Origin: Solirubrobacterales bacterium
GTDB lineage: Bacteria; Actinomycetota; Thermoleophilia; Solirubrobacterales; 70-9
DNA length: 64,000 nucleotides
Direction: 5' to 3'
Assembly (NCBI GenBank): GCA_036271315.1
Contig: DATBAV010000042.1
Location: 47,256 to 111,255 of the forward strand
Each line of letters begins with the position of its first letter. Positions within the stretch are counted from its first letter, which is position 1. The notes under the pieces were generated by a model. That model did no database searches, was not told where the DNA came from, and saw nothing but the letters and a program-made list of their open reading frames with translations. Below are positions 8,246-60,336 of the stretch, piece after piece. A program made the translations under genes and the position numbers.

Positions 8246-8349
8246 GAGGGGTCGTGTGCCCCTCTCACAGAGGCTTGGCGACCACATCCCAAATCGCCCA
8301 AGACGATCTGCTGCGCAACGGCCTCTGAGAGAGGGGCACACGACCCCTC
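8246..8349. repeat. 104-nt dyad element with 29-nt inverted arms (28/29 complementary); each arm is itself a hairpin
   Basis: GAGGGGTCGTGTGCCCCTCTCACAGAGGC (8246-8274) pairs with GCCTCTGAGAGAGGGGCACACGACCCCTC (8321-8349). Each arm contains GAGGGG-N7-CCCCTC. Confidence 0.8.
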
Positions 8350-8973: not shown

Positions 8974-9046
8974 TCCGGGGTGGTGTAATCGGCCAGCACG
9001 CTTGGTTTTGGTCCAAGAAGAGAGGGTTCGAGTCCTTCCCCCGGAA
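8974..9046 (+). tRNA. tRNA-Gln (anticodon UUG)
   Basis: Hand-folded cloverleaf. Acceptor stem is TCCGGGG/CCCCGGA and D stem is GTGT/GCAC. Anticodon stem is CTTGG/CCAAG with loop TTTTGGT. T arm is GAGGG-TTCGAGT-CCTTC. Total 73 nt with no encoded CCA. Confidence 0.9.
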
Positions 9047-9060
9047 CTTTCGGGACCGTT

Positions 9061-12133: not shown

Positions 12134-12984
12134 GCCGCGAGCCCCGGTTTCGCGCTCGGCGCCTGACCGGCCTCGCAGACGATCGCATCGTCGCGGGCGA
12201 GTGCCTCCGCCGCCTCCCGGGCCGCCGCCAGGCTCTCGAAGAGCCCGAAAGCGGTGGGGCCGGAGCCGGTGAGCAGCGCGTGCGGTGCGCCGGCATCGCG
12301 CAGGGCGTCGAGGGCGGCCCCGATATCCGGCCGCAGCGAGCGCGCCGCCGGCTCGAGGTCGTTGACGAGCAGCTCCGGGTAGGCGAGCGGCGAGGCGCCC
12401 GCCCCGGCCACAGAGCGCAGGCGCCCCTCCAGCCCCTCCAGCTCCTCGCTACCGCGGCCGAGTCCGAGGCGATCCGCCTCGGCGAAGACGTCAGCGGTGT
12501 CGAGTCCGCCGCCGCCGGGCAGCAGGACCACCGCGTGCGGTTTTGGCTCAGGCAGATGCTCGACGCTCTCCCCCGCCCCCCGCACCAGGGAAAGGGCCGG
12601 CGTCAGCTGCGAGGGCACGTCGGCACCGAGCGCGGCGGCGATCCGCTCCAAGTCGGCGATCTCGCCGGCCGCGAGCCGCAGCACCGCGGCGGCGTCGGCG
12701 CTGCCGCCGCCGAGGCCGGCGGCGACCGGCGTCCTCTTCTCGATCTCGATCCGCAACGGCGGGCTCCCCCAACCGTGCTCGCGCAGCGCCTGCAACGCTT
12801 GCAGCGCCAGGTTCTCGCCCTCGACCCCCGCGCAGATCACCTCGTCCTCGGCTGCCTCGCTCACCTCGATCAGGTCGCCGAGCGCCAGCGGCTCGAACAG
12901 CGAGCAGAGCTCGTGCAGGCCGTCGGCGCGGCGGGCGCCGAGGTAGAGACAGAGGTTGAGCTTGGCCGGAGCAGAGATCCGCAA
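12130..12984 (-). CDS. ispE: 4-diphosphocytidyl-2-C-methyl-D-erythritol kinase
   Basis: GHMP-kinase motif PVAAGLGGGSADAAA and N-terminus RISAPAKLNL. The TTG start at 12984 directly abuts the repeat element. Confidence 0.9.
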   Translation of the reverse strand: MRISAPAKLNLCLYLGARRADGLHELCSLFEPLALGDLIEVSEAAEDEVICAGVEGENLALQALQALREHGWGSPPLRIEIEKRTPVAAGLGGGSADAAAVLRLAAGEIADLERIAAALGADVPSQLTPALSLVRGAGESVEHLPEPKPHAVVLLPGGGGLDTADVFAEADRLGLGRGSEELEGLEGRLRSVAGAGASPLAYPELLVNDLEPAARSLRPDIGAALDALRDAGAPHALLTGSGPTAFGLFESLAAAREAAEALARDDAIVCEAGQAPSAKPGLAA

Positions 12985-13099
12985 GGGGCCTATCCCGGTA
13001 GGGGTTCCACTTAACTTTTTCGGTCGAGTGGAAGTTGTCTACCGTGGGCGGGGTTGGCGAAAAAGTACAAGACGTTCCACCCCTACCGGGATAGGCCCC
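12985..13099. repeat. structured palindromic element, family 1, copy 1 (115 nt)
   Basis: 20-bp perfect outer stem GGGGCCTATCCCGGTAGGGG/CCCCTACCGGGATAGGCCCC around the conserved core TTCCACTTAACTTTTTCG-N35-CGAAAAAGTACAAGACGTTCCA. The same core occurs at 16676-16795 and 54989-55108. Confidence 0.85.
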
Positions 13100-13841
13100 T
13101 GGCCAATGCTCGGAACTCGTTGGGAGAGAGTTGCTCGGCGCGGCTGTCCGCTGGCAGTCCGAGCGCCTCGAGCGCAGATCTGATCGCCTCCATCGAGCCC
13201 GGCCGCACATGCTCGACCGAGCGCGCCAGCGCCTTGCGACGGTGGGCGAAGGCCGCCCGGACCAGCTCGCGCGTCGCCTGGTCGGCGCCCGGGCCGGTGC
13301 GGCGCAGAGCGAGGATCGCCGAGTCCACCCGCGGCCGTGGGCGGAAGACGGCCGGGTCGACCTTGCGCAGCAGGCGCACCTCGCAGGCGAGCTGGGCGAG
13401 CACGCTCGGCGACCCGTAGGTGCGGTTGCCCGGCGCCGCGCGCAGCCGGTCGGCGATCTCGCGCTGCACCATCACGGTCCACGAACGCAGCGAGGGCAGC
13501 TGCTCGATCGTGCGCAGGATCACCGGGGTCGCCACCGAGTAGGGGAGGTTGGAGACGACCACCGTCGGCACCGGCCGCAGGGCGCCGAGGTCGATCCGCA
13601 TCGCATCCGCCCAATGCAGGCTGACGTTGGGTCGGGCGGCCAGGGGCTCGAGCGCCTCGGCCAGGCCCCGATCGAGCTCGACCGAGTGCAGGTGGGCAAC
13701 GACCTCGGCGAGCCGTTCGCTCAGCACCCCTTCCCCCGCACCGACCTCGAGCACCACGTCGTCGGGGCGCAGCTCGGCGTCGCGGACGATCGCGTCGAGC
13801 AGGTTCGGGTCGGAGAGGAAGTTCTGCCCGAGGCGGACCAC
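13083..13841 (-). CDS. rsmA: 16S rRNA (adenine1518/1519-N6)-dimethyltransferase
   Basis: RLGQNFL motif and SAM-binding VLEVGAGEGVLS. The final codons and the TAG lie inside the repeat arm. Confidence 0.95.
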   Translation of the reverse strand: MVRLGQNFLSDPNLLDAIVRDAELRPDDVVLEVGAGEGVLSERLAEVVAHLHSVELDRGLAEALEPLAARPNVSLHWADAMRIDLGALRPVPTVVVSNLPYSVATPVILRTIEQLPSLRSWTVMVQREIADRLRAAPGNRTYGSPSVLAQLACEVRLLRKVDPAVFRPRPRVDSAILALRRTGPGADQATRELVRAAFAHRRKALARSVEHVRPGSMEAIRSALEALGLPADSRAEQLSPNEFRALARGLSR

Positions 13842-15518: not shown

Positions 15519-16694
15519 GTGGCCGACTTCGCCGACTACTACCGCCAGATCTATGTCCTCGGCCTCGGCGGGGAGACCCCGAGCGTGCCCGTCTCTGTCG
15601 CCGAACTGGAGCGCCTCGCCGCCGAGACGATGGACGAGCGCGCCGCCAACTACGTATTTGCCGGCGCCGGCAGCGAGGGCACGATGGACGCCAACCGCGA
15701 GGCCTTCCGGCGGCGGCAGATCGTGCCGCGGATGCTGCGCGACGTCTCCTCGCGCGATCTCTCAACCTCCCTGCTGGGCACGGCGATGCCGGCACCGCTG
15801 CTGCTGGCGCCGATCGGGGTGCAGAAGGTCGTCCACCCCGACGGCGAGCTTGCAACCGCCCGGGCGGCGGCGGCCCTCGGCCTACCGATGATCGCCAGCA
15901 CCAACTCCCACTTCACGCTCGAGGAGATCGCCGAGGCGGGCGGTGACGCGCCGCGCTGGTTCCAGCTCTACTGGCCCAACGACCGCGCCATCGCCGCCAG
16001 CTTCGTCGGCCGCGCCGAGTCGGCCGGCTACGGGGCGATCGTGCTCACCGTCGACACCTTCGTCCCGGGTTGGAAGCCGCGTGACCTGCAGCAGGCCTGG
16101 CTGCCCTTCCTCAACGGCATGGGGGTCGCCAACTACTTCCAGGACCCGGTCTTCCGCGAAGGCCTCGAGAAGCCGCCGGAGGAGGACGTCGGCGGCGCCA
16201 CCGGCCACTTCCTCGGCGTCCAGGCCAACCCCGCGCTGAGCTGGGACGACCTCGCTTGGCTACGCGAGCAGACCGAGTTGCCGATCGTGATCAAGGGGAT
16301 CCAGCACCCCGACGACGCACGCGAGGCGGCGGCCCGCGGCATCGACGGCGTGATCGTCTCCAACCACGGCGGCCGCCAGGTCGACGGCGCGATCGGCGCG
16401 CTGGACGTACTGCCGGCGATCGCCGAGGCTGCCGACGACGAGCTCGCGGTCCTCTTCGACAGCGGCGTGCGCAGCGGCAGCGACGCGATCAAGGCGCTCG
16501 CCCTCGGCGCCGACGCCGTCTGCCTCGGCCGCCCCTATATCTGGGGCCTCGCCCTGGAGGGTCAACAGGGAGTCGAAACCGTGCTCAAGATGGTGCTGGC
16601 CGAGCTCGACCTGACGCTGGCGCTCTGTGGGTACACCGAGCCCAGCCAACTGGGCCCGGACGCGCTCTCTGAGACCCCGGACCTATCCCGGTAG
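15519..16694 (+). CDS. FMN-dependent alpha-hydroxy-acid oxidase/dehydrogenase (lactate 2-monooxygenase/L-lactate oxidase-like)
   Basis: Motif VSNHGGRQ and TIM-barrel FMN family features. GTG start, 391 aa. The last codons and TAG are encoded by repeat copy 2. Confidence 0.88.
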   Translation: MADFADYYRQIYVLGLGGETPSVPVSVAELERLAAETMDERAANYVFAGAGSEGTMDANREAFRRRQIVPRMLRDVSSRDLSTSLLGTAMPAPLLLAPIGVQKVVHPDGELATARAAAALGLPMIASTNSHFTLEEIAEAGGDAPRWFQLYWPNDRAIAASFVGRAESAGYGAIVLTVDTFVPGWKPRDLQQAWLPFLNGMGVANYFQDPVFREGLEKPPEEDVGGATGHFLGVQANPALSWDDLAWLREQTELPIVIKGIQHPDDAREAAARGIDGVIVSNHGGRQVDGAIGALDVLPAIAEAADDELAVLFDSGVRSGSDAIKALALGADAVCLGRPYIWGLALEGQQGVETVLKMVLAELDLTLALCGYTEPSQLGPDALSETPDLSR

Positions 16695-16795
16695 GGGTTT
16701 CACTTAACTTTTTGGGTGGGGACGGGGTTGCTGGCGCCACTGGGTTGGCGGCCAAAAAGCACAAGACGTTTCACCCCTACCGGGATAGGTCCGGG
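16676..16795. repeat. structured palindromic element, family 1, copy 2 (120 nt)
   Basis: 22-bp perfect outer stem CCCGGACCTATCCCGGTAGGGG/CCCCTACCGGGATAGGTCCGGG. The core is TTTCACTTAACTTTTTGG-N36-CCAAAAAGCACAAGACGTTTCA. Confidence 0.85.
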
Positions 16796-39158: not shown

Positions 39159-39767
39159 CTACTCGGAGATCAGCAGGTAACGGCCCGAGGCGGCGGCAAC
39201 GGCCAGACCGCCGCTGATGTTGCGCTCGGTGTCGGAGAGTGCCTGCAGGGCGAAGCCGTCGGCGATCGCGAAGAGGAAGGAGACGATCTCCTCGGCGTCG
39301 TGGCGGAGCTTGAGTACGCCCTCCTGTTCCTTAGCGCGCAAGACGTCGGCGACGTGCGAGCGGGTGCGCTCGAAGAGCTGGCCGACCTCACGCTGGATCT
39401 CCGGGTTGCGGCGGCCGGCGCTGAAGAGCTCGTAGAGAAGCAGGAAGAAGGTTGGCTCGTTCTCGATCAGGTCGGTGAGGCTGGCGAGCAGGACGTCGAT
39501 TACGTCGTCGACCGTCTCCGCCTTGGCCAGCGGTTCGTCGAGCCGCGCCACGCGGATCTCGGCGTCGCGGCGCACGACCTCGACCAACAAGCGCTCCTTG
39601 GTCCCGAAGTAGTAGTGGAGCAGGCCGCGGCTTACGCCCGCCTCGCGGGCAACGTGCTCGAAGGTCGAGCCGGCCGCACCGCGCTTGGCGACGCTGACCC
39701 GCATCGCATCAATGATGCGCTGCGCCTTCTCGCCACTGAGCTCACGTTCCTTAGTCGCCGCCTCCAT
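39159..39767 (-). CDS. TetR-family transcriptional regulator
   Basis: N-terminal TetR HTH (GAAGSTFEHVAREAGVSRGLLHYYFGTKE). 202 aa. Confidence 0.9.
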   Translation of the reverse strand: MEAATKERELSGEKAQRIIDAMRVSVAKRGAAGSTFEHVAREAGVSRGLLHYYFGTKERLLVEVVRRDAEIRVARLDEPLAKAETVDDVIDVLLASLTDLIENEPTFFLLLYELFSAGRRNPEIQREVGQLFERTRSHVADVLRAKEQEGVLKLRHDAEEIVSFLFAIADGFALQALSDTERNISGGLAVAAASGRYLLISE

Positions 39768-39809
39768 TAAGTCAGTTTACGTCGCCCAGGCGGATAGATG
39801 ACCAACGCT

Positions 39810-39943
39810 GCCTGGCATGCTCGAGGGGGCGCGCCCGGCCAAGCTGGGCGCCACACGCCGACTAGCGAATAGCAGCGCTATCCGCGAGAAGGCGGGCGGT
39901 GGTCCAGCGCCGCGCCGGCGCGTCATCCGCGGGTATGCCAGGC
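39810..39943. repeat. dyad region with the central 16-mer CGAATAGCAGCGCTAT (family 2, weaker copy)
   Basis: GCCTGGCAT (39810-39818) pairs with ATGCCAGGC (39935-39943). The 16-mer at 39866-39881 is identical to 44528-44543 and sits near the dyad centre. Confidence 0.45.
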
Positions 39944-39954
39944 GAGGCGGTCGT

Positions 39955-40380
39955 CTAGCTGCCGTTGATACTCGTGGTAGACGTGTACTCGAACTCCTCC
40001 TCGGCGCCGAAGAGGGCATCGAGCACCGTTTTGCGCGCATCCTCGCTGAGGATCAGGGCGACGGCGGCACCGACCAGGCCGAGCAGGACGATGCGACCGA
40101 GGCGGCTCTTCTTGCGCTTCTTCGGCGCCCGGAACGCCTCGGAGGCGTCACGCAGGTTCTCCGCCGCGACCTTGAGATCGCGCTGCACCTTCTTGTCGCT
40201 GGTGACTGCCTTGACCGTGCCGCCGTTGCTGGTCGCGCGGCCGTAGGCACCCTTCGCCGCTTCGAACGCCTTCTTCAGGCTGTCGCGCAGTTCTTCGTCC
40301 TCGATCAGTCGCCCCACGTAGGGGTTCTCGCGTGCGGTCGCATAAAGGTCGGCGGCCTGGGTCGCCTTCGTCTTGCTCAT
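39955..40380 (-). CDS. hypothetical protein with a single TM segment
   Basis: 141 aa with SD GAGGAGAAGG upstream of the ATG. A basic stretch KKRKKSR precedes the TM helix IVLLGLVGAAVALIL. Confidence 0.65.
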   Translation of the reverse strand: MSKTKATQAADLYATARENPYVGRLIEDEELRDSLKKAFEAAKGAYGRATSNGGTVKAVTSDKKVQRDLKVAAENLRDASEAFRAPKKRKKSRLGRIVLLGLVGAAVALILSEDARKTVLDALFGAEEEFEYTSTTSINGS

Positions 40381-42045: not shown

Positions 42046-44427
<2,382 letters not shown>

Positions 44428-44453
44428 CAGTGCCGCCTCTCGTGGGTGGGCAC

Positions 44454-44620
44454 TAGGAGTGGCTGGGGGAACCCGCGTGCGTGGGTCGGCGAGCGCCGGA
44501 CCAAGCGGGACAAGGACGCAGGGAGGCCGAATAGCAGCGCTATTCGGCCGACTGAGGACGCCGTACCGCGCAGCGTCCGCCGCCGCCGGACGCGTGCGGG
44601 GGTTCCCCCAGCCACTCCTA
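44454..44620. repeat. 167-nt dyad element filling the hsp20-lon spacer (family 2, strong copy)
   Basis: 21-bp perfect arms are TAGGAGTGGCTGGGGGAACCC (44454-44474) and GGGTTCCCCCAGCCACTCCTA (44600-44620). The central hairpin is GGCCGAATAG-cagcg-CTATTCGGCC (44525-44549). Confidence 0.8.
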
Positions 44621-45013
44621 TTCCCTCCCGATCGGGATCCGGCGGGTGGTCTCGGACGGATCGCGCAGCGGCAGCTCGATCCGCAGCACCCCGTCTTCAT
44701 AGGTCGCCGTGGCCCGCTCGGCGTCGACGTCGACCTGCAGCTCGACCACGCGGCGGAAGGGGCCCGAGGGAATCTCCACCTGCTGGTAGACCCGTCCCTC
44801 GGTCTCCTGCACCTGACGCTCGCCGACTATCGCCAGCTGCCGAGTCCCCACCTCGATCCCGACCTCGTCGAGCTCGACGCCCGCAAGATCGACCTTCACA
44901 ACGGCTCGCTGTGGATCACCGCAGTAATAGACATCCACGTTGGGAGTAAATCCCCTGCTCCTGCGGCTGACGTAGGTAGTCCGCGCCCAGGCATATAGGT
45001 CCCGCTCCGGCAT
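44618..45013 (-). CDS. Hsp20/alpha-crystallin family small heat-shock protein
   Basis: Alpha-crystallin domain (VDVYYCGDP...VVKVDLAGV...DGVLRIELP). 131 aa. The TAG stop forms the end of the dyad arm. Confidence 0.9.
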   Translation of the reverse strand: MPERDLYAWARTTYVSRRSRGFTPNVDVYYCGDPQRAVVKVDLAGVELDEVGIEVGTRQLAIVGERQVQETEGRVYQQVEIPSGPFRRVVELQVDVDAERATATYEDGVLRIELPLRDPSETTRRIPIGRE

Positions 45014-45042
45014 CTGCGGAACATTAGCCGCGCTGCGCGCGG

Positions 45043-45231
45043 TCAGGCTGTTTGAGGCTGGGAGGCCCAGCGGGGGGGACGCATCAGCAAAACGGGCTGC
45101 CGAGGCGGCACCAGGCCCTCGGGCCGGTTCGGCCTGAAGGTCGTGCAGGGCTCATCGAGCTCGAGTGCGCAAAGCAAGTTCTTGCGGAAGTAACAGTCCT
45201 CGCAGGTCGGCGGTTTGGGCTTGCGCGGCAC
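45043..45231 (-). CDS. hypothetical 62-aa four-cysteine protein
   Basis: C-x2-C-x7-C-x7-C (TCEDCYFRKNLLCALELDEPC). It lies 29 nt upstream of hsp20 on the same strand, and no other ORF competes for this interval. Confidence 0.4.
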   Translation of the reverse strand: MPRKPKPPTCEDCYFRKNLLCALELDEPCTTFRPNRPEGLVPPRQPVLLMRPPRWASQPQTA

Positions 45232-45368
45232 GACGGCGATATTGCCATCGCCATGACTCTTCCGTGCGGCTCAATTCCGCAAAGCGCAACGTTCTTGACA
45301 CAGTCTCGTCACAGGTTCCCCGCGTCTTGCGGGAGCCGGCGCCGCCCGCCGCTACCATTCGGCCACGG

Positions 45369-52077: not shown

Positions 52078-53751
52078 GTGGCAACTGTCGAGCACTCAGC
52101 CTCACAAGTGACCCACGAGGTCTTCAACCAGGCCTCGCCGCTGGAGGACTACAACCCCTTTGACGCCGATCGACCGCTGCGCGAGGCGCTGGTCCGCGAG
52201 GGCGCTGGCTGGGCCGAGGACCGGGCCCGCGAGCTCGGCGCGATCTGTGGTTCGGCCCAGACGATCCGCTGGGGCTTCGAGGCCAATGAGAAGAAGCCGC
52301 AGCTGAAGACCCACGACCGCTTCGGTCACCGCATCGACGAGGTCGAGTTCGACAGCTCCTGGCACGAGCTGATGCGGATCGGCTCCAGCCACGGCCTGCA
52401 CGCAATGCCCTGGCGCGAGCCGGGCGTCGGTGCCCACGTCGCCCGCGCGGCGATGTTCATGTTGCTGATGCAGGCGGAGAGCGGCGTCGGTTGCCCACTC
52501 TCGATGACCTACTCGGCGATCCCGGCGCTGCGCAAGCAGCCCGAGCTGGCAGCCGAGTGGGAGGAGCGCTTCCTCTCGCTCGACTACGACGAGCGCTCGC
52601 TGCCCGCCGATCGCAAGAGCGGCGCCCTCTGCGGGATGGCGATGACCGAGAAGCAGGGCGGTTCCGACGTGCGCGCCAACACCACCGTGGCGACGCCGCT
52701 CAACGGCGGCGGGCCCGGGGCCGAGTACGAGCTGGTCGGCCACAAGTGGTTCTGCTCGGCGCCGATGTGCGATGCCTTCCTCGTCCTTGCTCAGACCGAC
52801 TCCGGCGTCTCCTGCTTCCTGATGCCGCGCTGGACCCCCGATGGCGAGCGCAACGCCTTCCAGATCCAGCGCCTCAAGGACAAGCTCGGCAACCGCTCCA
52901 ACGCCTCCTCGGAGCTCGAGTTCCGCGGCGCTTGGGCGCGCATGGTCGGCGAGGAGGGACGCGGCGTGCCGACGATCATCGAGATGGTCAACCACACCCG
53001 CCTCGACTGCGTGATCGGTGCCGCCACCGGCTACCGGGCCGGGCTCGTGCAGGCACTCAACCACACCGAACACCGGGCGGCCTTCGGCAAGGAGCTGATC
53101 GACCAGCCGCTGATGCAGAACGTGCTCGCCGACCTCGCGGTCGAGTCCGAAGCCGCCACGGTCGCCGCGATGCGCCTCGCCCGCGCCTACGACGAGGCCG
53201 CCGCTGGCGAGGAGGACGCCGCCAATTTCCGCCGCCTCGCCAACGCCGTCCTCAAGTACTGGATGTGCAAGCGCGCCCCCTCCCATGCGGTCGAGTGCCT
53301 CGAGTGCCTGGGCGGCAATGGCTACGTCGAGGAGTCGGGCATGCCCCGCCTCTACCGCGAGGCCCCGCTCGCCTCGATCTGGGAGGGCTCCGGCAACGTC
53401 CAGTGCCTCGACGCCCTGCGGGCGATGGTCAAGAGCCCGGCCTCGGTCGAGGCATTCTTCGCCGAGGTCGAAGCCGGCTCCGGCGCCGAACCGAAGCTCG
53501 ACAACTACATCGCCGCCCTGAAGGACGAAATCCCCGGCGACGTCGCGACGATCGAGTCCCGCGCCCGCCGCATCGTCGAGGGCATGGCCGTCGCCCTTCA
53601 AGCTTCCCTACTTGTTCGTTACGGCGATCCGGCGGTCGCCGACGCCTTCTGCGCCTCGCGCCTCTCTGGCGACTGGGGCAACGCCTTCGGAACCCTTCCA
53701 GCGGGCACGAACTTCAGCTCAATAATCGAGCGCCACCGGCCCCGGGCCTGA
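52078..53751 (+). CDS. acyl-CoA dehydrogenase (AidB-like long form)
   Basis: 557 aa with ACAD middle and C-terminal domains (MTEKQGGSDV, YREAPLASIWEGSGNV). Confidence 0.9.
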   Translation: MATVEHSASQVTHEVFNQASPLEDYNPFDADRPLREALVREGAGWAEDRARELGAICGSAQTIRWGFEANEKKPQLKTHDRFGHRIDEVEFDSSWHELMRIGSSHGLHAMPWREPGVGAHVARAAMFMLLMQAESGVGCPLSMTYSAIPALRKQPELAAEWEERFLSLDYDERSLPADRKSGALCGMAMTEKQGGSDVRANTTVATPLNGGGPGAEYELVGHKWFCSAPMCDAFLVLAQTDSGVSCFLMPRWTPDGERNAFQIQRLKDKLGNRSNASSELEFRGAWARMVGEEGRGVPTIIEMVNHTRLDCVIGAATGYRAGLVQALNHTEHRAAFGKELIDQPLMQNVLADLAVESEAATVAAMRLARAYDEAAAGEEDAANFRRLANAVLKYWMCKRAPSHAVECLECLGGNGYVEESGMPRLYREAPLASIWEGSGNVQCLDALRAMVKSPASVEAFFAEVEAGSGAEPKLDNYIAALKDEIPGDVATIESRARRIVEGMAVALQASLLVRYGDPAVADAFCASRLSGDWGNAFGTLPAGTNFSSIIERHRPRA

Positions 53752-53813
53752 GCCGCCGGGAGTTCCCTGTCAGGAACTCCCGCGAAGCGGCCTGACAAGG
53801 AACCCCCGGCGGC
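53752..53813. terminator. nested hairpins between convergent genes (probable bidirectional, I-shaped terminator)
   Basis: CGGGAGTTCC-ctgtca-GGAACTCCCG (53757-53782) is a 10-bp perfect stem. An outer pair GCCGCCGGG/CCCGGCGGC is also present. There is no clear U-tract. Confidence 0.5.
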
Positions 53814-54974
53814 TCACGTCGACTGGTCGCGTAGCGCTCGTCCTACCTGCTCGGCGGTGATCACGCCCGAAAGGCGACCGTCGGCGTCGACCGCCATCAA
53901 GGCACCGAAGCGCCTCAGCGCCCCGCTAGTGAGCAGCGAATCGAGTGGAGCGTCGTCGCGCACCTGGAAGGTGCCGTCGTTGTGCTCGAGCAGATCGGAG
54001 ACGTGCCAGCTCGTGCGCGAGGTCTCGGGAACCTCATCCGCTTTGTCGCGGACGACGAGTCCGAGGAAGTGGTGGGCGGCATCGACCACCGGGAACCAGG
54101 GCCAGCGATAGCGGAGGAAGTATTCGTCCAGCGCCTGCTCGACGCTCAACTCATCGAGGATCGTCACCGGCTGGCGGTCCATCACGTCGGAGACCTGGAG
54201 GCTGCTGATCTTGCCGGTGATCCGCGTCTGCACTGAAGCGGCCTTGGCGGAGCCGTTGATCACGAAGCCGATCAGGGCAAGCCATACCCCGCTGAAGGCG
54301 TCGCCGACGCCGATCAGCACCAGCCCGCCGCCGATGAAGATGTAGCCGAAGACGCGGCCGAGGTTGGCGGCGAAGCGGGTTGCCGAGTTGCGGTCGCCGG
54401 TGCGCCACCAGGCGATCGCGCGGACGATCCGGCCACCGTCCATCGGGAAGGCCGGCAGGAGGTTGAAGATGAGCACGGCCGCGTTGATCCAAGCCAGCCA
54501 GCCGACCACCGCCATCGCTCCCGAGACGCCGGAGCCGGATTCGATCTCCACGGCGCGCTTGAACTCCTCCGGCCCGACCGCGGCCAGGCCCACTGCCGTA
54601 AGCACGATGACGATGGCAAGCGTCACCAGCGGGCCCGCGACCGCCACCTTGAACTCGGCCGCGGGGCTGGGGGACTCGCGATCCATCCGCGCCATGCCGC
54701 CGAAGATCCAGAGCTGGATGCTGGAGATGCCGATGCCGTTGCGCTGGGCGGCAAAGGCGTGGCCGAGCTCGTGCAGGACGATCGAGCCGAAGAAGGCGAG
54801 AGCGCTGATCACCGCCAGCACGAAGGCCGTCGAGCTGGAGCTGCTCTCGCCGAGCACGTCGCCGTAGAAGCTCGACAGCCAGAGGATCACCAGGAAGAGG
54901 ATCAGGAACCACGACCAGTCGACTGTGATGCGGATGCCGCGGACGTGGAACAGGGTTATCGGTTTGCCGCCCAT
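53814..54974 (-). CDS. site-2 protease (M50) family metalloprotease with C-terminal CBS pair
   Basis: HELGH motif (VLHELGHAFAA) and multiple TM helices. The start was moved to ATG 54974 (MGGKPITLFHV...); the track start 55016 lies inside repeat copy 3. Confidence 0.9.
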   Translation of the reverse strand: MGGKPITLFHVRGIRITVDWSWFLILFLVILWLSSFYGDVLGESSSSSTAFVLAVISALAFFGSIVLHELGHAFAAQRNGIGISSIQLWIFGGMARMDRESPSPAAEFKVAVAGPLVTLAIVIVLTAVGLAAVGPEEFKRAVEIESGSGVSGAMAVVGWLAWINAAVLIFNLLPAFPMDGGRIVRAIAWWRTGDRNSATRFAANLGRVFGYIFIGGGLVLIGVGDAFSGVWLALIGFVINGSAKAASVQTRITGKISSLQVSDVMDRQPVTILDELSVEQALDEYFLRYRWPWFPVVDAAHHFLGLVVRDKADEVPETSRTSWHVSDLLEHNDGTFQVRDDAPLDSLLTSGALRRFGALMAVDADGRLSGVITAEQVGRALRDQST

Positions 54975-54988
54975 CACAGGTCCAATCG

Positions 54989-55108
54989 TACGTGGCCGTC
55001 CAGGCGGGGGTTCCACTTAACTTTTTCGGTGGGGCGTGGTTGGGCTGGCGCCTAAAGCTCCCGACGAAAAAGTGCAAGACGTTCCACCCCCGCCTGGACG
55101 GCCACGTA
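54989..55108. repeat. structured palindromic element, family 1, copy 3 (120 nt)
   Basis: 22-bp perfect outer stem TACGTGGCCGTCCAGGCGGGGG/CCCCCGCCTGGACGGCCACGTA. The core is TTCCACTTAACTTTTTCG-N36-CGAAAAAGTGCAAGACGTTCCA. Confidence 0.85.
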
Positions 55109-59220: not shown

Positions 59221-60125
59221 GCGAGCAGATCAAGGTCGCCTACTGGCCCGGCTGCGTCTCGCGCGGCTTCACCACCGAGCTGCACGGCTCGATGGCGATC
59301 GCCGCCCAGAAGCTCGACATCGAGTTGGTCGAACTCGACCGCGCCAACTGCTGCGGCGCCGGCGTCATCGCCGAGCACAACCAGGAGCTGGCCGACACGC
59401 TCAACGCCCGCACCTTCGCCCTCGCTCAGCAGACCGGCCTCTCGATGATGAACATCTGCTCGACCTGCCAGGGCGCGCAGTCGGAGTGCCAGCAACGACT
59501 CGACGCCGACTCCTCCTACCGCGCCCACATCAACGAGGTGCTGAGCGGCCAGGGCCTCTCCTACGAGAAGGGCAAGGACGGCTTCACCAACAAGAACTTC
59601 CTCTGGTTGCTGGTCGAGGACTACGGCCTCGACCGCCTCGCCGAGAAGGTGACGCGCCCGCTCAGCGGCCTGCGCGTAGGCCCCTTCTACGGCTGCTATG
59701 TGGTCCGCCCCAAGGAGCGGCTCGGCTACGACGAGTTCCCCGAACGCGATCTCTACCTGGAGAAGGTGATCGAGGCGCTCGGCGGCGAGGTCGTCGAGTA
59801 CGACGGCGCCCGCAAGTGCTGCGGCTTTCCCGTGATCACGATGAACCGCGACACCTCGCTGCGCCAGGCCGGCACCCACGTCGGCGACGCGCTCGACGCC
59901 GGCGCCGACTGCCTCGTCACCCCCTGCCCCCTCTGTCACCTCAACCTCGACATGCAGCAGCCCGAGGCGGCCAAGGTGGTCAATAGGGACTTGGGCCTCG
60001 CGGTCCTGCATCTCCCCCAGCTCGTCTCGCTCGCCCTCGGCGCCTCGCCGAAGGAACTGGGGATGAGCAAGCACATCGCTTCGACCAAGTGGGTTGAAGA
60101 GCGGCTTGCTGCGGTTCCTGCCTGA
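59217..60125 (+). CDS. HdrB-like CCG-domain protein (SdhE-type subunit of non-classical succinate:quinone oxidoreductase)
   Basis: Two Cys-rich CCG-type motifs (WPGCVSR...ANCCGAG and FYGCY...RKCCGFP). It overlaps sdhB by 4 nt. 302 aa. Confidence 0.85.
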
Positions 60126-60145
60126 TTCGCTGACCTGAACGGGGT

Positions 60146-60213
60146 GAGCGCGTGCGCAGGGGTCTGCGGACGCGCTTCGCGCTGAGTGTCCGCAGACCCC
60201 TGCGCACGCGCTC
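60146..60213. repeat. 26-bp perfect inverted repeat (hairpin, 16-nt loop) just downstream of the sdh operon; possible terminator or REP-like element
   Basis: GAGCGCGTGCGCAGGGGTCTGCGGAC (60146-60171) pairs with GTCCGCAGACCCCTGCGCACGCGCTC (60188-60213). Confidence 0.75.
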
Positions 60214-60336
60214 TTCTCGATTCGGAGAGCAGATCAAGCAGGATCAGCTCCAAGAAGTCCATCCACTCTGTCTCGAAAGCTCAAGGCTCTGGGACTTCGG
60301 CGAGCTCGGCACCTTGGAGCGAACCTCAGTCGGAGG

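Follow-up and report, generated by a model that had tools for sequence, protein, structure and literature searches.

The 167-nt palindromic element between hsp20 and lon is, judging from sequence comparisons, probably a MITE-like, non-autonomous and non-coding mobile repeat that duplicates TA, is dispersed in Solirubrobacterales and was inserted in the hsp20 stop codon. It represents a new family of a known kind of repeat, in an under-studied order, with some atypical properties. The DNA analysed here, called the window throughout, is the whole 64,000-nt stretch of a Solirubrobacterales contig. A sequence-only reading of this DNA had described two 21-bp complementary arms 125 nt apart, and these are present without a single mismatch as TAGGAGTGGCTGGGGGAACCC at 44454-44474 and GGGTTCCCCCAGCCACTCCTA at 44600-44620. 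Beyond the perfect arms, the inverted repeat reaches 29 nt at 90%. The local hairpin that had been placed at the exact centre was also recovered, with arms of 11 nt. Without both flanking TA dinucleotides, the element measures 163 nt, and its perfect terminal inverted repeat (TIR) is 19 bp, or 21 bp counting the TA. When up to 3 mismatches were allowed, the 19-mer of the arm occurred at two sites only in the window, and two or more matches were obtained in none of 100 shuffled sequences.

Folding predicts one hairpin that spans the whole element. The minus strand, which is the mRNA sense, folds to -124.3 kcal/mol (z = -7.0), in agreement with the earlier proposal of a single large structure in a transcript spanning hsp20 and lon. 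The plus strand folds to -137.2 kcal/mol (z = -8.1). A covariance model built from eight copies (R1) scored 193.5 bits on the plus strand of the element versus 67 bits on the minus strand, and the family-sense strand is the plus strand of the window, antisense to hsp20 and lon. The element has no coding capacity of its own; it is only read through, in frames and on strands that differ among the host ORFs. A search against Rfam 15 returned zero matches at E <= 1 in 44000-45200, and at gathering thresholds the whole window yielded tRNA-Gln alone, with nothing at the element. The coordinates of the features are collected in Table 1.

Table 1. Positions of the hsp20-lon element, its parts, its host genes and related elements. 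Positions without a prefix refer to the window; those with a prefix refer to other loci, under our own locus labels.
Feature	Position	Strand	Basis or remark
Complete palindromic element including flanking TA dinucleotides	44454-44620	+	Inverted-repeat analysis, folding, covariance model R1
Left TIR, GGAGTGGCTGGGGGAACCC	44456-44474	+	Family consensus GGAGGGATTGGCGAAACCC
Right TIR, GGGTTCCCCCAGCCACTCC	44600-44618	+	
Apical hairpin, GGCCGAATAGC-AGC-GCTATTCGGCC	44525-44549	+	11-nt arms at 44525-44535 and 44539-44549
Conserved core	44491-44584	+	Two AGGACGC direct repeats, in internal loops
TA copy, lon side (putative target-site duplication)	44454-44455		L003 reads CA here
TA copy, hsp20 side (putative target-site duplication)	44619-44620		Together with 44618 forms the hsp20 TAG (minus strand)
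hsp20, 131 aa, PF00011 family	44618-45013	-	Stop codon rebuilt by insertion
lon, 793 aa plus stop codon	42046-44427	-	True start MEGSPVLEVV, ATG 44425-44427
Ancestral 25/26-nt hsp20-lon spacer, now downstream of the element	44428-44453	-	Matches the L024 and L008 spacer TGCCGACTCGCGAGAGGCGGCACTG
TGATG-overlap junction	L013, L019-23, L027-30		
3-5 nt spacer junction	L009-12		
25-nt spacer junction	L008, L024-26		Empty form of the window's site
Close copies	L032:10536-10702 and L032:4878-5041		Both within 19 kb, common TIR
Close copy	L033:5186-5352		
Close copy	L034:10005-10171		
Close copy	L036:5831-5996		
Close copy, in birA	L031:10351-10517		
Copy, core only	L035:10603-10695		
Diverged superfamily member	39795-39957	+	Covariance model; terminal CTA 39955-39957
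Further related elements	L031:13624-13801, L031:4219-4393, L019:14821-14930, L024:14364-14474		Covariance model

The hsp20-lon loci of Hsp20 homologues, 87-99% identical, were compared with the window. Apart from L003 (see below), the element is absent from all relatives' junctions examined (0-25 nt), including those of strains with a 99% identical Hsp20. Eleven independent relatives' loci show either a TGATG overlap, a spacer of 3-5 nt or a spacer of 25 nt. The empty site of the 25-nt type reads GGGAC TAG TGCCGAC...CACTG ATG (for L024 in full, GGGAC TAG TGCCGACTCGCGAGAGGCGGCACTG ATG), and the filled site of the window reads GGGAA TA[GGAGTGG...CCACTCC]TA GTGCCCAC...CACTG ATG or, in a longer reading, GGGAA TA[GGAGTGGCTGG...CCAGCCACTCC]TA GTGCCCACCCACGAGAGGCGGCACTG ATG. 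TA(G) is present once in the empty site and twice in the filled one, with the perfect 19-bp TIR directly inside, and the first G of the element restores the TAG stop of hsp20. On this comparison of filled and empty sites, the 167 nt at hsp20-lon are an insertion. The geometry given by the sequence-only reading holds at this junction: one arm has the hsp20 TAG as its last triplet (CTA on the plus strand, 44618-44620), and the other arm ends 26 nt from the lon ATG in a spacer of 190 nt. Its dismissal of an 884-aa Lon ORF as an artefact was likewise correct, as Lon of the relatives starts at the homologous MEGSP/MESSP methionine and comprises 793-800 aa. The 25-nt and overlap forms of the junction differ by an indel with ...AC repeats at its flanks.

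An exact-arm scan of 185,579 representative genomes identified both arms in just one other genome, at the hsp20-lon junction of the Solirubrobacterales MAG L003 (CAVPFX010000002.1). Elsewhere in these genomes, the exact 19-mer gave single chance matches within unrelated coding sequence; in a metagenome collection, it gave no copy of the element and chance matches in unrelated coding sequence; and in the L003 MAG, no second copy of the exact arm was found beyond hsp20-lon. In the 185,579 genomes scanned, the arm in its exact form is confined to hsp20-lon, and this TIR variant is therefore single-copy, a point against the mobile-repeat explanation. The nearest relative of the window is L019, which is empty, in the lon tree, and L003, which is filled, in the hsp20 tree. 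Since the two trees disagree, loss, recombination or, less likely, a second insertion must have occurred. The low divergence between the window and L003 could also arise if the element had entered the same TA twice, once in each lineage. We judged this unlikely, given that the L003 MAG holds no second exact copy of the TIR variant and that the two elements agree in orientation and site. Directly upstream of hsp20, a 62-aa ORF (45043-45231, minus strand) is kept in relatives (L008:3785-3973; L013:3772-3960). No Pfam hit is recorded for this ORF, whose product could be a regulator or a small co-transcribed protein.

A large stable structure that sits exactly between two heat-shock cistrons, and that the window and L003 share with little change, might have been a dedicated cis-regulatory RNA of hsp20-lon, whether thermometer, attenuator or processing signal, that had arisen at this site. 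We regard this explanation as essentially refuted and as the least probable of those considered. The sequence-only reading had treated the dyad as an element of the hsp20-lon operon and had named the spacers of relatives as a comparison that would bear on this; these turned out to be short junctions and empty sites, even beside the nearly identical Hsp20. Moreover, the same sequence was recovered at unrelated loci, with the other copies lying outside heat-shock operons, which speaks against a role specific to hsp20-lon. The suggestion of a temperature-responsive structure fared no better, as folding in silico from 25 to 85 °C leaves the arms predicted to be 0.92-0.99 paired. A thermometer is excluded in silico, since no melting of the arms is predicted up to 85 °C and since both the ATG of lon and its SD-like GAGAGG (44436-44441, within the ancestral spacer) lie outside the hairpin. 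No terminator-like site with a U-tract was detected on either strand in 44200-45300, where the stem is followed by GUGCCCACCCACG, and a consensus scan of the same interval revealed no sigma-70-like promoter. Furthermore, the best-folding strand is antisense to the operon. 6S-like RNA, retron ncRNA, bridge RNA and omega RNA were also considered for their long-hairpin shape. They were rejected because the element is multi-copy, of mixed orientation, has an in-frame copy in birA and gives no Rfam hit, and because no RT, recombinase or TnpB gene is present in the loci seen.

The arms proved variable among copies; exact DNA scans therefore failed, and six-frame translation was used instead. Stop-free six-frame translations of the element served as protein queries, and three such searches returned 11, 41, and 20 database proteins. 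About 55 proteins carry the element as read-through. The translated core is placed N-terminally, C-terminally or internally in host proteins that are unrelated to one another (Amt, ABC-3 permease, TrkA, cytochrome c, BirA, MFS, and many short hypothetical proteins), and those named all come from Solirubrobacterales MAGs. Seven further DNA copies were recovered from six fetched loci, in unrelated contexts that include positions after amt, after an ABC-3 gene, after ccmC, and inside birA. Homologous TIRs are present in 7 other copies, and most copies have TA, or its transition variant CA, at their flanks. One flanking TA has become CA in L033 and in L003; the mutation in L033 lets an ORF read through into the element. 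Several MAGs together hold 8 or more close copies and 4 or more diverged relatives. The highest local density of close copies is 2 in one 19-kb locus (L032), and the window holds 2 members of the superfamily. A 23-mer of the core had 0 matches in viral contigs, and the whole element, searched in distant mode, had no match among PLSDB plasmids. These results document a MITE-like family in a poorly studied, abundant order of soil actinobacteria. They explain the spurious 884-aa Lon ORF together with many read-through "hypothetical proteins" in Solirubrobacterales MAGs, and they show that dispersed DNA repeats are accessible through protein databases when a translated repeat is the query.

Two further filled and empty pairs were obtained. 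One is downstream of ccmC, where the element is present in L034 and missing from L031. The other is in birA, where L031 has 168 extra nt in frame, equivalent to 56 aa, and L034 (14207-14974) is empty. Both pairs show a clean insertion of ~165-168 nt at which the TA duplication is not resolvable. The birA insert lies between ...LIEAR and PQDGWAVIGVGLN... and is common to two BirA proteins (P0126 and P0129) that are 76% identical overall. The arms of this copy have strongly diverged from the family consensus, with 14 bp still perfectly complementary. Four upstream genes have the terminal TAG of an element as their stop codon, namely hsp20 and a 141-aa ORF in the window, amt (L032:10530-10540), and ccmB (L031:4219-4225). 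The overlap seen at hsp20 is thus a family trait and is consistent with (C)TAG targeting. In a GC-rich genome, such sites come largely from stop codons, and the TAG/CTAG of stop codons looks like the preferred landing site of the family. The family combines repeated occupation of TAG stop codons with tolerance of an in-frame copy in the essential gene birA.

The element is small (<~600 bp), non-coding and bounded by TIRs, with a target-site duplication by comparison of filled and empty sites, as MITEs are. TA duplication is also produced by some IS5/IS427 elements, such as IS1301, in AYTAG. IS630-family elements insert at TA with a preference for CTAG and duplicate the TA (PMC2170065, citing Tenzen & Ohtsubo 1991), and the element has the same TA target, with CTAG preferred and the TA duplicated on insertion. 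The likeliest mobiliser would be an IS630/Tc1-mariner-type transposase acting in trans, and it is the duplicated TA alone that points to this family. The 430 kb of sequence examined contained neither a solo TIR nor an IS end. A full-length IS or a transposase of the IS630 type with matching ends was likewise not found, which counts against the MITE-like explanation. In the proposed course of events, the element entered the TA of the (C)TAG stop of hsp20, at the head of the 25-nt spacer, in an ancestor of the window genome and L003. The TA would have been duplicated on insertion and the TAG stop re-made by the first G of the element.

In behaviour, the element is closest to the Correia, ERIC and Rickettsia palindromic elements. 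Like the Correia elements of Neisseria (CREE/NEMIS), it is within ~100-200 bp, non-coding, equipped with TIRs, associated with TA duplication, and placed between cistrons as a long co-transcribed hairpin. RNase III is known to cut Correia elements at the TIRs, and promoters and an IHF site can be part of them (PMC2649163, PMC10969869). In contrast, the present element shares no sequence similarity with them, belongs to another phylum, and contains no promoter-like sequence that we could find. Among Correia copies it is the TIRs that are conserved; here it is the core, and the arms vary and covary. Furthermore, Correia elements exceed 100 copies per genome, whereas the number here looks low, no more than 2 close copies having been seen within 19 kb. 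The ERIC and RU-1/RU-2 elements (YPAL, 168 bp) of enterobacteria and yersiniae are alike in their length of 127-168 bp, stable stem-loop, and TA ends with duplication (PMC2759123). ERIC are intergenic in operons, with occasional intragenic read-through, and have orientation-dependent effects on mRNA decay (PMC2759123, PMC10969869). Their sequence and hosts are unrelated to ours, and their palindromes are imperfect, without the perfect 19-21 bp arms seen here. Rickettsia palindromic elements (RPE) insert in frame into protein genes and are retained (as cited in PMC2759123). The birA copy, which adds 56 aa and is kept in two lineages, resembles them in this respect, but most copies of our family are intergenic or at stop codons, and the sequences are unrelated. 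IS630/Tc1-mariner elements and the associated MITEs (Stowaway-like, RUP) share the TA/CTAG target and the duplicated TA, and the empty sites here read C-TAG. The points of interest in the family are stop-codon targeting, the retained in-frame copy in birA, and a reversed conservation pattern combined with strand asymmetry.

The mean pairwise identity among copies is 93% in the core (the central 94 nt) versus 68% in the outer arms. This pattern is the reverse of that of a textbook MITE and, together with the strand-specific pairing described below, may reflect either exaptation or an unusual way of mobilisation. The arms are nevertheless complementary within each copy, with 94.8% of cells paired over 65 pairs. 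Both sides have changed in 12 of these 65 pairs, compared with a mean of 6.8 in shuffled data; none of 500 shuffles reached the observed value, and controls with slid partners collapsed to 34-43% paired. The same strand folds better, by 2.5-21 kcal/mol, in all eight close copies and five diverged relatives (13 of 13), and intact copies contain 3-5 G.U pairs and zero A.C mismatches. The motif TAGCAGCGCTA of the apical hairpin is kept even in diverged subfamilies and, together with CCAAGC(G/T)GG, persists where the stems of the subfamilies wholly differ.

These observations would be expected if a single-stranded fold, rather than the TIR sequence, were recognised, with the apical core as the recognition module and an outer stem that need only pair. 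The element would then be an HUH-type ssDNA element (IS200/IS605, RAYT, REPIN-like), which in its ssDNA version could alternatively be read in single-stranded form like a single-strand origin, or else a spreading structured RNA gene. REPINs and REP-RAYT systems are comparable, as dispersed hairpins whose pairing is upheld by compensatory change and whose active form is thought to be the single strand (PMC3116915). However, REPINs consist of two conserved REPs around a variable spacer and lack target duplication, and the element is the opposite on both counts. An identity with REP/REPIN was rejected on these grounds, the TA being duplicated and the core being more conserved than the ends. We consider recognition of the fold, the main rival, improbable as an explanation of the family. 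TA(G) is duplicated at the sole cleanly resolved filled/empty site, and IS200/IS605 as well as REP/REPIN elements have neither a duplication nor full-length TIRs. In addition, no Rfam match and no promoter or terminator consensus was found, no associated gene was seen in the loci examined, orientation relative to neighbouring genes is mixed, and one copy lies in frame within birA. Many of the G.U positions are inherited and hence do not represent independent events. Templated correction of quasi-palindromes could keep the arms perfect without selection, and could in this way mimic covariation.

Such correction does not explain a low overall substitution rate or conserved loops, and both are seen in the hsp20-lon copy. 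Between the window and L003, 4 of 167 positions of the element differ: two are G.U/G.C switches, and these two, which are the stem substitutions, are such switches on the better-folding strand; one lies in a loop and one in the TA. Elsewhere, the two genomes differ at 95 of 387 fourfold-degenerate sites (24.5%) and, in the spacer next to the element, at 3 of 26 nt. The copy is thus ~10 times more conserved than synonymous sites, which suggests that it is probably retained by selection and not merely tolerated. Conservation extends to unpaired positions of the core, with only 1 of the 4 window/L003 differences at an unpaired position, and 8 of 9 copies have the apical palindrome unchanged. It is conceivable that the repeat disperses a putative protein-binding site, an operator or nucleoid-protein site formed by the 25-bp palindrome GGCCGAATAGC-AGC-GCTATTCGGCC and/or the AGGACGC repeats, and that the hsp20-lon copy is kept for bringing the operon under that protein. 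This proposal concerns the cargo and is compatible with a MITE. To our knowledge, no known operator matches, as the motifs of CIRCE, HAIR, CtsR and ClgR-like heat-shock operators do not fit the element. Strand asymmetry would also be left unexplained. A precedent is provided by the IHF sites within Correia elements (PMC10969869), and we still rate a protein-binding cargo as highly improbable.

A broader interpretation joins several of these features: the repeats would form an undescribed Solirubrobacterales family of mobile hairpins that homes to the TA of TAG stops, with selection on the fold and the apical core, and the hsp20-lon copy would have been exapted. We put this forward tentatively, and it is rather unlikely to hold in full. 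If true, selection on fold and core would point to recognition at the level of ssDNA or RNA, unlike that by classical TIR-binding transposases; the TAG stop would serve as a safe harbour in which the stop codon is rebuilt on insertion; and the hsp20-lon copy would be a functional structure in, or antisense to, the operon, nearly invariant over ~25% synonymous divergence.

Under the MITE-like explanation, which we prefer, the consequences for the operon can be outlined by analogy. The hsp20-lon mRNA would bear a hairpin of ~80 bp between its cistrons, and stop-start coupling would be gone. RNase III cuts Correia TIRs, and ERIC changes mRNA decay (PMC10969869, PMC2649163). By comparison with these elements, the hairpin would most plausibly be an RNase III-type processing site or a stability barrier, together with a partial block to transcription, and the levels of hsp20 and lon would be uncoupled as a result. 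An effect on mRNA processing or stability of the Correia and ERIC kind is possible and would fit the conservation of the copy in its two carriers. However, the better-folding strand is antisense to hsp20-lon, which does not favour selection on mRNA structure. Natural pairs of strains with and without a hairpin between two co-transcribed heat-shock genes provide material for tests of operon expression.

A profile search of the window with nhmmer revealed no further close copy. The covariance model matched a second region at 39791-39961 (43 bits, E ~3e-7), which was trimmed to 39795-39957. The terminal CTA of this diverged member is the TAG stop of the 141-aa ORF (39955-40380, minus strand), and the element occupies the spacer before a TetR-like gene (39159-39767, minus strand), where L024 and L027 have only ~50 nt. 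Four further elements detected in other loci with the same model have CCAAGC(G/T)GG, the apical TAGCAGCGCTA, and GAGGACG motifs in common, and their stems are quite different. Two of them, in L019 and L024, are shorter and have only internal-loop modules (CAAGGACGCAGGGAG ... CGACCGAGGACGCC) in common, with a different apical stem, which suggests a mosaic or modular build of these repeats. Two more regions, L031:984-1131 and L024:19459-19533, were picked up by the model but lack the common motifs; they look like unrelated GC-rich hairpins and were set aside.

The window also contains a separate palindromic family of ~120 nt, with copies at 12981-13103, 16676-16795, and 54989-55108. Its core is kept (TTCCACTTAACTTTTT...AAAAAGYRCAAGACGTTYCAC), and its outer arms, which differ among copies, are perfect (23 nt) or 96% complementary (25 nt). 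This family repeats the pattern of a conserved core with variable self-complementary arms; it has no Rfam match, and the copy at 54989 is flanked by TA. Other long GC-rich hairpins are found at 53749-53816 (26-nt arms, 92%), at 60105-60254 (67-nt arms, 78%), and at 8246-8349 (29-nt arms, 97%), the last lying ~600 nt upstream of the tRNA-Gln gene (8974-9047).
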